A stretch of DNA of 64,000 bases from Bacilli bacterium (lineage in GTDB: Bacteria > Bacillota_I > Bacilli_A > RFN20 > CAG-826). The DNA lies in the NCBI GenBank assembly GCA_017635565.1, contig JAGBLE010000010.1:94967-158966 (forward strand), given 5' to 3'. The position numbers were made by a program. Position 1 is the stretch's first letter; each line of letters starts with the position of its first letter. Below are positions 45,001-57,000 of this stretch, piece by piece.

Positions 45001-48000
45001 CTCCAATATCAGCAGGAAGTTTACAGTAATATTCAACTGGTTCATGGGTGACTTCATCACGATATAAACCAATATGACCACATGCTGCCCCTGGAATGAG
45101 TTCAAGAAGACCATCCGCCATACCTAAGCCTGCTCTTAAGATTGGAACAAAGCATAAGTCGTTAATACGAACTTCTGGTTGAATTGTTTTTTCAATTGGA
45201 GTTTGAACTTCGACATCAATTGTTTCGACATTTCGAAGAGCCTCATATCCTTCAATAACTGATAATTCTTGAACGATAGGTCTAAATTTATGAGTTGAAG
45301 TTTCGACTTTTCTTAATTGAGTAATTTTGTGTTTGATGAGTGGATGATCAAGTAAAATTACATTTTTATACTTTGAAATATCAATTCCCATTTTAATTAT
45401 TCTCCTTTATCTTCCTCAGCTTTAGCTTCTTCTTTTTTGCGTTTGATGTTGACCACTAAGTTAACAAGAATACCTAAGATTAAAGCACAAGCAACTTCTG
45501 TAATAACAATCGCGCCACTACTTCCTAAGGAAATATTAAGTGTGAAGCCACCAACACCAGCAATTAAGATAACGGAGACAACGAATAGGTTTCTGTTATC
45601 GCCGAGATCAACACCTTGAATCATCTTAAGTCCACTGACAGCGATGAAACCATATAAAGCGATACAAACACCACCCATAACGCAAGATGGAATGGTTGAT
45701 AAGAATGTGGAGAATGGTAATAAGAAGCTTAATAAAATAGCAATAACTCCGGTTGTTAAGATTGTTCTAACAGAGGCGTTACCAGAAATAGCAACAGTAC
45801 CAACTGATTCACCATAAGTGGTATTTGGACATCCACCGAAGAAAGCTCCAGCAATACTTCCAACTCCATCGCCTAACAATGTGCGATGTAAACCAGGTTC
45901 AGTTAATAAATCTCTATTAATGATTGAACTTAAGTTCTTATGATCAGCAATATGTTCCGCAAAGACAACGAAAGCAACCGGGACATATGCAACAGCGATT
46001 GTGCCTAAATAAGCTCCGAAGTTGCCACCAGCGAAATCGTAATTGCCACTGAAAGCAGTTAAAAATGTGAAATCTGGACACCAGCCACCAACAAACTTAC
46101 CCCATCCAGCGGAAGAAAATAAATCAAAATTAATAACTTTTAAAGCATCGTTACCAGCGCCATAACCAATAGCAGTGAAAAGAGCAGCAACTGCGTAACC
46201 AGCTAAAATGCCAAAGATGAAAGGAATCATCTTTAAGAATTTCTTACCATAAACAGAAACGATAATGGTTGTAAATAATGTAATAAGTCCACAGACGATA
46301 GCGACCCATGTATTAGTAGAACCAGATCCATTAGAAGTCAAATCACCAATCGCATTTCCTGACAAAGATAAGCCGATAATTGCAACTGTAGGACCGATAA
46401 CAACAGGAGGCATAATTTTGTTAATCCAATTAGTGCCAGCGAATTTAACAATTAAGGCTAAAATTACATAGACAAGACCTGCTAAGGCAGCGCCAAGAAT
46501 AAGACCTAAATAACCAACGGACATTGAAACTCCGCCAGCAAAAGCTGCAAACATACTTCCTAAGAAAGCAAACGAACTACCTAAGAAAACAGGGCTTTTA
46601 AATTTTGTAAAAAGTAAATAAACAAGGGTTCCAACACCTGCGCCGAATAAAGCGGCAGATTGACTCATTGTTGCACCAGTAACACCATTAACGATTGCAG
46701 GAACCGCAATAGTAGCGGCCATGATGGCGAGAAGTTGTTGTAAAGCAAAGACTACTGTTTTACCCCAACTTGGTTTGTCTTCAACTTGATAAATCAAATT
46801 AGTTTGTGACATAATTTTTCCTCCGTATTTAAAAAAAATACTCGACACTAAGGACGAGCAAGAGGGGATAATGGGCTTGTAGATGGAATTCTTAGACATC
46901 TTTTTATATCAGGAATCGCTAATAATCTAAACATTGCCACTGCCCCTTTATTACGTCTATTTTAAAAAATTAATTAGCCAATTTTCAATAACAAATTGAA
47001 ACAAAAAAATGATGTTATAAACATCAAAATTTTTTGGACATTTTCTAAATTTTTTATGGCCAATCCTTAGTTATTTTATAACTTAGCTTTTGCTTATTTG
47101 TTTTTTATTTCAAAAAATAACAATCAAAGAAAATAGAAATTTTATTATATAAAAAGTATGGGAATTACCCATACCTTATTAAATGTTAAATTAAGAATTA
47201 TAAAGTCGCATATAGTCCGTGAAGATTACAATATTCAAAAACACGGACAACTTTTTCTCCAGGAAGAAGAGCAAAGCACGCTTCTGGTTTTTCTCCTGGT
47301 TTGAGAACTTTTCTTTGATTTCCCATGTTGGTTTGTAAAGCAATCCACATAATGTAATGGGCTTCCATCATTGGGTGATCGACTTCACCAACTTTAACAT
47401 GGACAACATTATCCTTCACTTCGAAAATAGGAATATGTTTTTCATGAACACCATCTTGGGTATTTGGAAGTAATTCTTCCATTGCTTCTCCACAACAAAT
47501 AGTTGGGACTGGTGTATCATTGACTACTGCGATTATTTTTCCACAATGTTTGCATTTAAAAAATTTCATTATCTTTACCTCCACTTTCATTATATAGGAA
47601 AAACTAGTCTCTAATAAACAAGTCTCTTGTATAAACTTTTTCTTTAACTTCATCTAAAGAAGAATCGTATCGATTAGCAATTATCAAATCGCATTTATTT
47701 TTAAATTCTTCAGATTGATCATTTATCAATATAGTTGCGCCTAAATCTTTAAGTTTGTTACTGACATCAATGATTGAAGCATGACGAATGTTATCACTAT
47801 TTTTCTTTGATTCAAAAGAATATATTCCGATGATTGATTCGTTAATTGGCTTATTCAATTTTGAAATGATATCACTGACGATGAAGTCTTTTCTTGATTC
47901 ATTGCTTTTTTCAATCGAGGAAATTAAGTCGTTATTAGAAATGTTTTTCATTTGAGAAATGAGTTCAGAAGTATCTTTAGGAAGGCAATATCCACCAAAA

Positions 48001-54000: not shown

Positions 54001-57000
54001 GTTTCTCCTAAGTCTTTTCCAACAGCGTTAAGATATATGTCTGGATCTTTAATTCCTAAGTCTTTAAAGAAGACACCATTGAGGTTATAGTCATAATTTT
54101 GTCCAGTATGGACAAGAAGAGTGTCAAAATAGTCTCGACACTTATTAATCACTGCGGCTAATCTAATGATTTCTGGGCGTGTCCCAACAATAATCATTAA
54201 TTTTAATTTTCCATTATTTTGAAAAGGCATGGACATATCCTCCTTATTCGTGTTGTCTAACTGGTCCACCAAAGAGTTCGAGTTTTTTGAGAAGTTCTTT
54301 CATTCCGTTAACATCAAGTCGACCAGTGTTATGAGAAGTATAACTCTCTCCTAAGTTTAACTTTTTATTTCCTTTAGAGAAATATTTATCATAATTAAGA
54401 TCACGGTTATCCGCTTTAATGCAGAAGAAATTTCCCATATCAACAGAGTGAAGCATTTCTTCTTGAGTAACTAATGTTTCGTAAAGTTTCTCTCCGTGTC
54501 TAGTTCCAATATATGTGATACCTGTTTTGCTATTGGTGAGTTCAATAACTGCTTTCGCTAAAGTATCAATTGTGGCGGCAGGAGCTTTTTGAACAAATAA
54601 GTCACCTTGTTCACCATGTTCAAAAGCGTAAAGCACTAAATCAACCGCATCATCAAGAGTCATCATGAATCTTGTCATATCTGGATTAGTAATTGTAATT
54701 GGTTTCCCTTCATGGATTTGATTTAAAAATAGAGGGATAACGCTTCCTCTTGAAGCCATAACGTTACCGTATCTTGTTAAGCAAAGAACAGTGTCACCTT
54801 TGAGAAGTTGTCTACTTCTAGCGATAACATTTTTCTCCATTAAGGCTTTTGAAATACCCATCGCATTAATTGGATAAGCGGCTTTATCAGTAGATAAGAA
54901 AATGGCTTTCTTGACGTTATTACGAACACAAGCAGTAATGACATTATCAGAACCAATAACATTAGTCCTTACTGCTTCCATTGGATAAAATTCACAAGAA
55001 GGAACTTGTTTTAAAGCAGCAGCGGAGAAAACATAATCAACACCTTTAAAAGCGTCAATGATGCTATCGAGATTTCTCACATCTCCAATATAAAATTTAA
55101 GTTTCTCATTGTTATACGCTTTTCTCATATCGTCTTGTTTCTTTTCATCACGAGACAAGATTCTAATTTCTTTAATTTCAGTATTTAAGAAACGATCAAC
55201 AACGGCGTGACCAAAAGAACCAGTCCCTCCAGTAATGAGAAGAACCTTATCTTTTAAGATTGAAGTATCTTTCGCCATAAATTCCATTAAGCGATCTTTA
55301 ATCCCTTCTAATTTGATTTGGTCCGCATTTTTTTCATCAGTTTCATAGCTGATATACGTTCTAAGTGGCATCTTCACCACATCAGCGGCACCTTTTTGTG
55401 TTAATTTGCAATTTTTGCGTAATTCTTTAAGTGTCATATTTGCACCTCATTTCACATATATTATATATATTAATATGTTTATGTAAAATAAAAAGTGCAA
55501 GATTTGCACATTTTACTATATTTATCGCTTAGGATTAAAGCTCGATTTTAACGGATAAGGCAATAATTTCAGAAGCAAGACGTAATTCATCAACTTCTAA
55601 ATATGAAGGAGCGATCCTAATGTGAGAGTTATCTTTATCAATATGATATGGATAAGCGCATCCAGAATCAGTTAAGGTTACTCCACATTTTTTACATCTT
55701 TCAATGACTTCTTTTGCTTTTCCTGGAACATATAAGGAAATGAAATATCCTCCATGAGGTTTACTCCAATTTACGATTCCACTTAATTCTTTATTGAAAA
55801 CTGAATCCACTACTTCGAATTTCTTTCTTAAAATATCAGCGATTTTTTTCATATGACTTTCTAAATCAGAAAGAAAATAAGCATGTCTAAGTTGATTGAT
55901 TTTATCATAACCAAGAGTTTGGCATTTTAATTGATTTTTAATGAAATTAATATTGTTATTGCTTGTAGCGACAGAGGCCACTCCTGAACCAGCAAAAGTT
56001 ATTTTACTTGTTGAAGAGAAAACGTAAACAATATCTTCGTTATGTTCTTTTTTGGCTTCAGTAAAAATGTTCAGTAAAGAATCGATATGACCATTATATA
56101 AATGATGAACAATATAGGCTTCATCCCAATAAATTCTAAAGTCTTTCGCGCTTGGTTTTAAAGACGCAAAGCGACGAACGACTTCATCAGAATATGTGAT
56201 TCCTGTTGGATTAGAATATATTGGAACACACCATATACCTTTAACAGATGGATCTTTAACATATTCTTCAATTAAATCCATATCTGGACCATCTTCATTC
56301 ATTGGAATATTGATCATTTCAATTCCGAAATATTCAGTGATTGCAAAATGTCGATCATATCCAGGAACAGGGCAAAGCCATTTAATTTTGTCTAATTTAC
56401 ACCACGGAGTGTTTCCATTTACTCCATGAGTCATACTTCTCGATATGAAATCATACATGATATTCAAAGAAGAATTTCCGTATATGAGAATGTTTTCTTT
56501 GTTGATGCCTGTCATTTTTGAAAAAAGCTTTTTGCATTCATCAATGCCAGTTAATTCTCCATAATTACGGATATCAATTCCATTTTCATTAATAAAAGAA
56601 GATGATGAGTTAATAACATCAAGTAAGCCAAGAGATAAATCTAATTGATGTTTATTTGGTTTGCCTCTCGACATATTGATATTAAGATTCATCGATTGAT
56701 ATCTTTGATATTCTTTTAATAATTCTTCTTTATTCACAAATTTTCTCCAAAATGATTTTTATGACTTCGGCTGAAGTAAATTGTTTTAATTCATCTTTAA
56801 TAATATCAACTTTTCTTTCTTCTTCCATAAAGGAAGTAAATTTATCATCATCAAAGTCTTCGTTTTGATTAATGATATAAGCATTTTGGTAATTTGAAAT
56901 AAGTTTGGAAGTTTCTGAATTTAAATTATCAGTGGAGAAGATAATTTTCTTCTCTGTTGAGATATATTCAAAAGCCTTAAACGGAATGAAATTTGATAAT

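Follow-up and report, generated by a model that had tools for sequence, protein, structure and literature searches.

Two enzymes of nucleotide-sugar metabolism, a UDP-glucose 6-dehydrogenase-like protein and an FnlA/CapE-like UDP-GlcNAc 4,6-dehydratase/5-epimerase, are encoded within a 64-kb stretch of DNA from the metagenome-assembled genome (MAG) of an uncultured Bacilli bacterium (the whole stretch is referred to below as the window), and both begin with a related helix-turn-helix (HTH) module of the XRE type. The module was found to be real, translated, conserved and XRE-folded. The best-supported reading of the sequences is that it serves as a functional, sequence-specific DNA-binding domain, each fusion binding a palindrome in its own promoter, and it is probable that the two proteins are working nucleotide-sugar enzymes which, by means of this minimal XRE domain, bind their own promoters and most likely autoregulate them. 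A preliminary description of the window had offered two explanations for the modules: moonlighting enzymes that autoregulate their loci, or a lineage-specific module that does not bind DNA. The first is favoured by the presence of a palindrome in the promoter of essentially every module gene and by the covariation of its half-site with the recognition helix of the protein; the second is disfavoured.

An XRE-type module at the head of two nucleotide-sugar enzymes

The relationship of the two N-termini, already recognized in the preliminary description, was confirmed by BLASTP (50% identity over 34 residues; E 3e-9) and by hidden Markov models (HMMs) prepared from the first 60 residues of each family, each of which finds the module of the other over its full 57 positions (E 8e-12 and 3e-14). 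Because the HMMs align across all 57 positions, the homologous unit comprises approximately 57 residues and not the approximately 45 first reported. The HTH_3 profile of Pfam (PF01381), suggested earlier as a check, did match both modules, over positions 1-33 and 1-41 of its 55 (E 1e-4 and 6e-4), with scores of 22.4 and 20.3 bits that lie just under the gathering cut-off of 23; a precomputed PF01381 match is carried by many module homologues. As modelled with AlphaFold2 (AF2), the module is composed of four helices, without a fifth helix and without a dimerisation domain of its own, has a predicted local distance difference test score (pLDDT) of 88-96 in the full-length model, and is followed by a linker of approximately 10 residues and then by the Rossmann fold; no Met codon is present in the linker of either protein.

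The canonical enzymes lack this extension, as had been stated: the NCBIfam models of FnlA (337 positions) and UDP-glucose dehydrogenase (388 positions) begin at residues 61 and 64, respectively, and the closest solved dehydrogenases, of 377-402 amino acids, have no N-terminal HTH domain. The extension is kept in relatives of both fusions. Within the best 120 FnlA homologues listed (86-94% identity, 99-100% query coverage), the module is N-terminal in all but two truncated proteins, and it heads nearly all of the 120 dehydrogenase homologues listed, which share 47-64% identity, the exceptions being a few truncated entries. An alignment of 83 dehydrogenase fusions shows no variation at R7, Q14, R26, K29, R30 and E32, which equal the catalytic residues in this respect. 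Across 39 distinct FnlA-type coding sequences, the ratio of nonsynonymous to synonymous substitution rates (dN/dS) was 0.22 in the module as against 0.06 in the enzyme; to judge from these sequences, the module is under purifying selection.

A profile search of the PDB matched XRE-type DNA binders alone (3MLF, PezA, MqsA, HipB and the controller (C) proteins of restriction-modification (R-M) systems), the best sequence matches being to 3MLF (E 9e-8), PezA (1e-5) and MqsA (2e-4). With Foldseek, the top matches of the FnlA module were likewise all XRE-family DNA binders (probability of at least 0.9), led by C-proteins, P2 C, HigA2 and HipB. In every module alignment, Q14, R26 and E32 are invariant, and T27 and Y28 vary little, if at all (T/S and Y/F). 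Ugd and CapE serve as substrates of tyrosine kinases (BY-kinases) in other Firmicutes. On alignment, Q14, R26-T27-Y28 and E32 of the module correspond to Q24, R35-T36-Y37 and E42 of C.Esp1396I, for which structures and mutagenesis identified R35 and T36 as contacting bases and Y37 as contacting the backbone (PMC4041747). The conservation of Y28 would thus be more simply explained by its alignment to this backbone-contacting residue than by phosphorylation by a BY-kinase.

The enzyme domains of both fusions look intact, from their motifs and strong family scores. The dehydrogenase matches Pfam UDPG_MGDP_dh_N (PF03721; E 2e-29) and the central domain (PF00984; E 3e-26), and its translation includes VGAGYVG and GGYCLPKD, the latter fitting the catalytic Cys motif GGxCxxKD; TGGTGSFG is found besides these two in the translations of the fusion enzymes. 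Its match to the C-terminal UDP-binding domain PF03720 is weak and partial (20.4 vs 30 bits). It passes the NCBIfam subfamily for NDP-sugar dehydrogenases (274 bits vs a cut-off of 190), and its best NCBIfam equivalog, UDP-glucose 6-dehydrogenase (PRK15057), falls short (352 vs 757 bits); since this cut-off is missed and PF03720 is weak and partial, its substrate specificity is not certain. The closest structure to its AF2 model (pLDDT 90.3) is that of HasB from S. pyogenes (1DLI; 44% identity, TM 0.88). With HasB the closest structure and UDP-glucose 6-dehydrogenase the best equivalog, the enzyme is better described as Ugd/HasB-like (UDP-glucose type) than by the Cap5O label it had been given. 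The second fusion matches Polysacc_synt_2 (PF02719; E 7e-102) and the C-terminal domain PF08485 (E 1.5e-20), and NCBIfam FnlA (TIGR04130) is its best family by a wide margin (534 bits, under the equivalog cut-off of 730; PseB, 310).

The positions first given for the two genes were right, both being on the minus strand, apart from the start of the dehydrogenase gene. Its open reading frame (ORF) had been listed as 47604..48947, beginning at a TTG at 48947; the true start is the ATG at 48920, because an identical 438-residue protein at NCBI (P0121, annotated as 'MAG: nucleotide sugar dehydrogenase [Bacilli bacterium]') begins there and because the promoter geometry described below fits it. The start of fnlA is the ATG at 55437, preceded at 6 nt by a GAGGTG Shine-Dalgarno sequence.

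Palindromes in the promoters of module genes

Both module genes of the window are shortly preceded by a 15-bp palindrome (Table 1). Their common pattern, GTGC-N7-GCAC, has two matches in the window, both upstream of module genes, where 0.14 would be expected; this expectation was computed after the pattern had been seen. As the pattern was derived from the same two sites, it was tested on independent sets of loci, which constitute the real test.

The first of these sets consisted of 46 loci retrieved with the peptide PLRTYKR[IYL]E alone, one genome per species being scanned, and originated from rumen and gut MAGs of Bacilli, Erysipelotrichaceae, Clostridia, Ruminococcus, Mageeibacillus and Acholeplasmatales. 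With one mismatch at most, the GCCA-type palindrome GTGCCANNNTGGCAC was found at 60 sites in the 160 nt upstream of the module genes (7.4 kb), representing 42 of the 46 loci, and at none in the remaining 212,050 nt. With two mismatches at most, 44 of the loci have a site, and the two without one encode unrelated HTH proteins. The second set was assembled from 13 loci found by look-ups of exact proteins and 60 that the FnlA-type module retrieved from metagenomes, 62 of them being non-redundant. The GCAA-type palindrome RTGCARNNNYTGCAY (RTGCAR-N3-YTGCAY) lies upstream of the module gene in 40 of the 62 as an exact match and in 52 with up to one mismatch, compared with no exact match and three with up to one mismatch in 168,467 nt elsewhere. 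Its position ranges from -57 to -76 relative to the ATG, nearly all sites being at -68 to -76. The palindromes were thereby shown to occur specifically, and at fixed positions, in promoters of module genes; in all, such sites are kept in about 100 related genomes. A search of the window for further sites of a possible regulon, at up to three mismatches, returned low-quality matches alone, besides a weak site at the fnlA ribosome-binding site (Table 1), and so gave no sign of a wider regulon in the window. In viral contigs, AGTGCCANNNTGGCACT has at least 120 matches, none beside a module gene, which is the level of chance for 14 specified bases in so large a collection and uninformative.

Within these loci, the half-site and the recognition helix of the protein were observed to covary. 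Proteins with Arg at position 30, in helix 3 (RTYKR or RTYxR), comprise the dehydrogenase type and a type in which the module is joined to an MNT nucleotidyltransferase domain, and their half-sites have C at position 5 (46 sites). For the FnlA-type proteins, in which RTYV/I precedes S, A, E, D, M or K, the base at this position is A (41 sites); the two exceptions may be sites of neighbouring genes. The GCCA...TGGC core is retained beside MNT-type proteins whose helix reads RTYIR or RTYLR. In one metagenome contig (L098:1391-1420), a dehydrogenase/MNT-type palindrome, GTGCCAAATTGGCAC, with a T-run lies approximately 110 nt upstream of an FnlA-type gene, upstream also of the FnlA-type operator; it might be the site of a neighbouring gene or a terminator, and hints at possible cross-talk of the two operator types.

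The placement of the palindromes relative to the promoter elements differs among the three types. None of the 20 dehydrogenase-type loci, the window included, has a Shine-Dalgarno sequence (loci L001-L016, L029, L035, L036 and L039 were taken in with the window), and their -10 hexamer reads TATAAT without deviation in 13 of the 20 and stops exactly 6 nt short of the ATG in 16 of the 20. In eight, including that of the window, the palindrome has its start 35 nt ahead of the ATG (GTGCCA at 48955-48950, TATGAT at 48932-48927 and ATG at 48920), which places GTGCCA at the -35 position, 17 nt before the -10; in the remainder, it is situated 15-22 nt further upstream. The dehydrogenase mRNAs appear to be leaderless, with the Met of the module as their first codon, and the predicted operator of the window gene spans roughly -35 to -21. 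That of fnlA is centred near -50. One FnlA-type lineage (L052-L055:1960-2003) has TATAAT, 6 nt and then the ATG, with no Shine-Dalgarno sequence and a degenerate palindrome, CTGCAAATATTGCT; it is apparently leaderless, and therefore promoter layout varies within the FnlA class. The MNT-type promoters contain two to three full palindromes spaced 28-33 bp apart, followed by TTGACA, and a GGTGCCAA half-site in the spacer between this -35 element and TATAAT; judged by its elements, the layout is that of a classical autorepressed antitoxin promoter. A sigma-54 promoter was also considered, given the resemblance of TGGCAC to the -24 element, and rejected, as no TTGC occurs at the required N5 spacing.

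Autoregulation weighed against other explanations

Ugd, FnlA/CapE and MNT proteins are obligate oligomers. As the module lacks both a fifth helix and a dimerisation domain and the enzymes are oligomeric, the fused enzyme would supply the dimer needed at a palindrome; two modules, paired in this manner, would bind the 15-bp inverted repeat in their own promoter. At the dehydrogenase gene, the bound protein would cover the -35 element and spacer of the leaderless-mRNA promoter and hence exclude RNA polymerase, providing negative autoregulation. At fnlA, the GTGCAA-N3-TTGCAC site directly adjoins the -35 of the promoter that serves fnlA-fnlC-fnlB, and the UDP-L-FucNAc operon would be repressed; repression is considered the likeliest outcome because the site is arranged in the same way as the operator nearest the promoter in the genes of the homologous HTH-MntA antitoxins. 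Given that the half-sites differ in step with the recognition helices (RTYKR vs RTYIS), each enzyme would be expected to control its own promoter. It is by inference that we propose physical binding, its regulatory sign, the pairing of modules through the enzyme and any influence of substrate or cofactor.

A number of observations weigh against autoregulation by the fusions. The HTH_3 scores of both window modules are sub-threshold, and all carriers of the module are uncultured MAGs. The covariation is confounded with phylogeny and enzyme class; in essence, two or three independent lineages underlie it. Near the ribosome-binding site, a GTGCA half-site was found in just 18 of 44 FnlA-type loci, where the Shine-Dalgarno sequence and the M-T-L codons confound it. 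Both palindromes of the window score as terminator-like hairpins with a T-run in a scan for promoters and terminators, and in the dehydrogenase and FnlA classes the palindrome is followed by four bases that are 93-100% T; it may therefore act at the level of RNA, or serve both as operator and as insulator-terminator. The sign of the regulation at fnlA is uncertain, as C-proteins activate from a site near -50.

Activation is the central feature of the first alternative, in which the module would bind the palindromes as an autogenous activator or as an activator-repressor switch, as the controller proteins of R-M systems do. These are its closest structural and motif relatives, and the apparently leaderless dehydrogenase genes recall several C genes whose transcripts are leaderless (PMC2691842). 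Moreover, the -35 element of the dehydrogenase promoter is non-consensus (GTGCCA), and the FnlA site is located directly upstream of its -35. However, a dimer bound at the dehydrogenase site should block sigma region 4, and the fnlA promoter of the window, with 11 of 12 consensus bases, and the MNT-type promoters (TTGACA/TATAAT) are strong promoters, which need repression. In addition, antitoxin promoters are classically autorepressed, as is generally known of type II and type VII toxin-antitoxin systems. This alternative is considered unlikely.

The serious rival, though also quite unlikely, is that the palindromes act in front of these genes as insulating hairpins or intrinsic terminators (A-tract, short stem and U-tract) and that the module, without binding them, has another function, such as protein-protein contacts or the control of oligomers. 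The terminator-like scores and conserved T-runs mentioned above would be accounted for in this way, as would the position of the 55495-55509 site 26 nt after the stop codon of the aminotransferase gene, and the ordinary terminators of neighbouring genes likewise start with GTGC and end with GCAC. Against this, it is the sequence itself that is conserved and not its pairing alone, single-sided changes (TGACAC) being uncompensated, and no match was found at several hundred other gene ends in approximately 380 kb of flanking DNA (three for the GCAA type with up to one mismatch). The MNT-type promoters bear their two to three tandem copies upstream of a consensus -35, often with no T-run; the sites of the window dehydrogenase and of locus L051 follow divergently transcribed genes, leaving no transcript to terminate; and the half-site changes along with the recognition helix. 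Finally, the proposition that the extension is an annotation artefact or an untranslated leader, with a downstream start (an internal Met had been named in the preliminary description as the observation that would overturn the fusions) yielding module-less enzymes, may appeal to the mechanical listing of the ORFs and to the sub-threshold HTH_3 scores but is scarcely credible given the dN/dS of the module, the invariance of several of its residues among homologues sharing just 47-64% identity, the Shine-Dalgarno sequence before its ATG in fnlA, the arrangement of -10, 6 nt and ATG by which, in dehydrogenase loci, the mRNA would begin with the AUG, and the lack of a Met codon in either linker.

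Module carriers, neighbouring genes and related systems

When a profile of the module was compared with 1.84 billion representative proteins, 3468 matches were obtained at E<1e-3 and 368 at E<1e-10; the highest-scoring, with 8-10 matched stretches, are generic tandem-HTH proteins outside the module subfamily. The earlier suggestion that the module might be lineage-specific is not supported, the module being present in MAGs of Bacilli and each of the other groups listed above for the first set of loci, most often fused to an MNT antitoxin. Besides the dehydrogenase and FnlA fusions, its commonest carrier is a protein of approximately 156 residues in which it precedes the MNT nucleotidyltransferase domain. 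The encoding genes (L017-L045, for example L017:2501-2971) are mostly followed, with an overlap of approximately 8 nt, by an ORF of approximately 110 residues with the HEPN motif GMRNRIVHDYG, and by these features the pairs are HepT/MntA toxin-antitoxin pairs in which the antitoxin bears the module. Among P0381, P0385, P0379, P0249, P0337 and P0348, the partner of the module is a transketolase N-subunit, a GreA-like segment, an MNT domain whose long C-terminal extension closes with another HTH, or one of several C-terminal regions of uncharacterised type; some of these isolated fusions may be artefacts of assembly or gene calling.

A tentative proposal, which we regard as doubtful, is that the module and its palindrome comprise a self-regulating cassette, portable enough to have passed between HepT/MntA antitoxins and enzymes of metabolism; the partners observed are UDP-glucose dehydrogenase and FnlA, with the transketolase subunit and GreA-like protein as probable additions. 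Since proteins of the dehydrogenase and MntA types share a recognition helix and operator, they would bind the promoters of each other in genomes that possess both. If the cassette exists, the status of a toxin-antitoxin system, and with it phage attack or stress, would be coupled to the supply of surface-glycan precursors, and nucleotide sugars or NAD(H) would act on the repressor through its enzyme domain.

The genes around the two fusions have sugar-nucleotide, transport and redox functions (Table 1 lists the features located). The order of fnlA, the fnlC-like gene and the fnlB-like gene is kept in related loci. An MNVLV sequence, earlier taken as a possible internal start, belongs to the FnlB/CapF-like ORF and to neither fusion. 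Two further enzymes of the window, both acetyltransferases, are fused to HTH domains, so the count of four such enzymes given earlier was true, but only the dehydrogenase and FnlA-like fusions have a module of this family. In the acetyltransferases, the HTH domains are ordinary ones that match the module HMMs weakly (E 0.003-2) and represent a different XRE subfamily; grouping them under the same phenomenon is not supported.

Table 1. Location of the module fusions, their predicted control elements and associated features in the window
Feature	Position	Strand	Remarks
GNAT and hexapeptide-repeat acetyltransferase fusions	30589-31332, 33516-34418	plus	HTH_3 above threshold (27.6 and 50.2 bits)
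HTH-UDP-glucose-6-dehydrogenase fusion gene	47604..48920	minus	438 aa; Pfam, NCBIfam, AF2 model
HTH module of dehydrogenase, residues 1-57	48750..48920	minus	AF2 full-length model, helices 3-9, 14-20, 25-33, 41-52
-10 element of dehydrogenase gene, TATGAT	48927..48932	minus	17 nt after GTGCCA, 6 nt before ATG; promoter scan
Predicted dehydrogenase operator, GTGCCACTTTGGCAC (minus-strand reading)	48941..48955		GTGCCA-N3-TGGCAC; left half doubles as -35
Bidirectional terminator at end of fnl operon	51955..51978		Strong; stem of 9 pairs, then T-run
FnlB/WbcJ/CapF-like reductase, operon gene 3	51977..53080	minus	NCBIfam UDP-2-acetamido-2,6-beta-L-arabino-hexul-4-ose reductase (E 2e-97); Pfam Polysacc_synt_C
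FnlC-like non-hydrolysing UDP-GlcNAc 2-epimerase, operon gene 2	53082..54236	minus	Pfam Epimerase_2; NCBIfam wecB above cut-off
HTH-FnlA/CapE-like UDP-GlcNAc 4,6-dehydratase/5-epimerase fusion gene	54244..55437	minus	397 aa; Pfam, NCBIfam
HTH module of FnlA, residues 1-57	55267..55437	minus	AF2 module-alone pLDDT 93; helices 3-9, 14-20, 25-33, 40-56
Weak, uncertain second site, GTGCAAATATGACAC	55431..55445		Two mismatches to palindrome; overlaps fnlA Shine-Dalgarno sequence and ATG
fnlA promoter, TTTACA, 16 nt, TATAAT	55460..55487	minus	11/12 consensus; best promoter-like site in 47-56 kb
Predicted fnlA operator, GTGCAAATCTTGCAC (minus-strand reading)	55495..55509		GTGCAA-N3-TTGCAC; 7 nt upstream of -35

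Other genes of the region were noted. Between the dehydrogenase gene and the fnl operon, two genes on the plus strand (49013-51949) encode a 605-residue membrane protein with Big_2 and VanZ domains and a 350-residue STAND/AAA-type ATPase with a weak C-terminal winged-helix-like match. An ORF of 847 codons (58574-61117, minus strand) encodes an ABC-transporter permease (BPD_transp_1) with a C-terminal nucleotidyltransferase (NTP_transferase/MobA-like); it adjoins genes for an ABC ATPase and a solute-binding protein, and such a transporter-enzyme fusion is unusual. Upstream of the aminotransferase gene, an ORF of 380 codons (56730-57872, minus strand) has no match in Pfam or NCBIfam; with glycan genes close by, it may encode a glycosyltransferase or polymerase that has escaped recognition.

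Enzymes of capsule and surface-glycan precursors such as Ugd and FnlA/CapE divert UDP-glucose and UDP-GlcNAc from cell-wall synthesis, and the control known for them is exerted by separate regulators or by tyrosine phosphorylation. In the fusions described here, a regulator is apparently built into the enzyme itself, a compact solution adopted in many uncultured rumen and gut Bacillota. The analysis supplies a concrete predicted operator, GTGCCA-N3-TGGCAC with its GCAA variant, and a predicted determinant of specificity, Arg30, which would pair with a C:G base pair; both are open to direct assay on synthetic DNA with recombinant protein, no culturing being required. A large set of HepT/MntA antitoxins gains a DNA-binding domain and a predicted operator, nucleotide-sugar enzymes join the short list of enzyme-transcription-factor fusions, and the module-operator pair could become a small orthogonal repressor part. 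The literature searched, in which not all journals are covered, contained no HTH fusion to UDP-glucose dehydrogenase or FnlA/CapE, no HTH-bearing MntA and no such palindrome, and the papers on characterised MntA proteins in the searchable literature make no mention of an HTH.

With regard to known systems, the catalytic domains are conserved with those of canonical UDP-glucose 6-dehydrogenases (HasB, 1DLI; Ugd, 3PLR) and of canonical FnlA/CapE, the latter also with fnlC- and fnlB-like genes following; the canonical enzymes, however, start at the Rossmann fold, without the HTH extension of approximately 60 residues. The module resembles 3MLF (a putative regulator of S. aureus), PezA and the C-terminal domain of MqsA, XRE-type DNA binders of which two are antitoxins, but these are stand-alone regulators or antitoxins with approximately 30% identity over about 45 residues and without the PLRTY...KY signature. 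A closer relationship exists with the HTH-MntA antitoxins (HepT/MntA, HEPN-MNT, type VII), which carry a module of the same family and share with the dehydrogenase both the PLRTYKRYE recognition helix and the GTGCCA-N3-TGGCAC operator; from these sequences, the module-operator pair of the fusions and antitoxins looks to be a shared cassette. The antitoxins differ in possessing an MNT partner domain (GS-x10-DxD), a HEPN (Rx4H) toxin gene next to them and two to three operators together with a half-site; the fusions of the window have no MNT domain and are followed by no HEPN gene.

The R-M controller proteins (C.Esp1396I, PDB 3CLC/3UFD; C.BclI; C.PvuII) have a similarly small XRE-fold HTH (Foldseek TM 0.65-0.75), with an R-T-Y triad at the start of helix 3. 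Their dimers bind palindromes around the -35 of their own gene and several of their genes are leaderless, the former being proposed of the fusions and the latter of the dehydrogenase genes. These proteins, however, are free-standing, with approximately 80 residues, a fifth helix and their own dimer interface, and they adjoin R-M genes and recognize GACT...AGTC C-boxes, whereas the module of the window has four helices, is fused to enzymes with predicted half-sites of GTGCCA and GTGCAA, and has no R-M genes nearby. In its organization, the system is comparable to the enzyme-repressors, or 'trigger enzymes,' BirA, NadR, PutA and archaeal RbkR, each of which combines DNA binding and an enzyme in one chain, with operators, or in the present case predicted operators, at promoters of the same pathway; RbkR was likewise discovered by comparative genomics (PMC5397151). 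Ligand control has been demonstrated for these four proteins, which differ from the fusions in their pathways and in having a winged HTH or ribbon-helix-helix in place of the XRE fold. The system described here would function like BirA, NadR, PutA and RbkR, bears a head most like the R-M controllers and XRE antitoxins, and is a member of none of these families.

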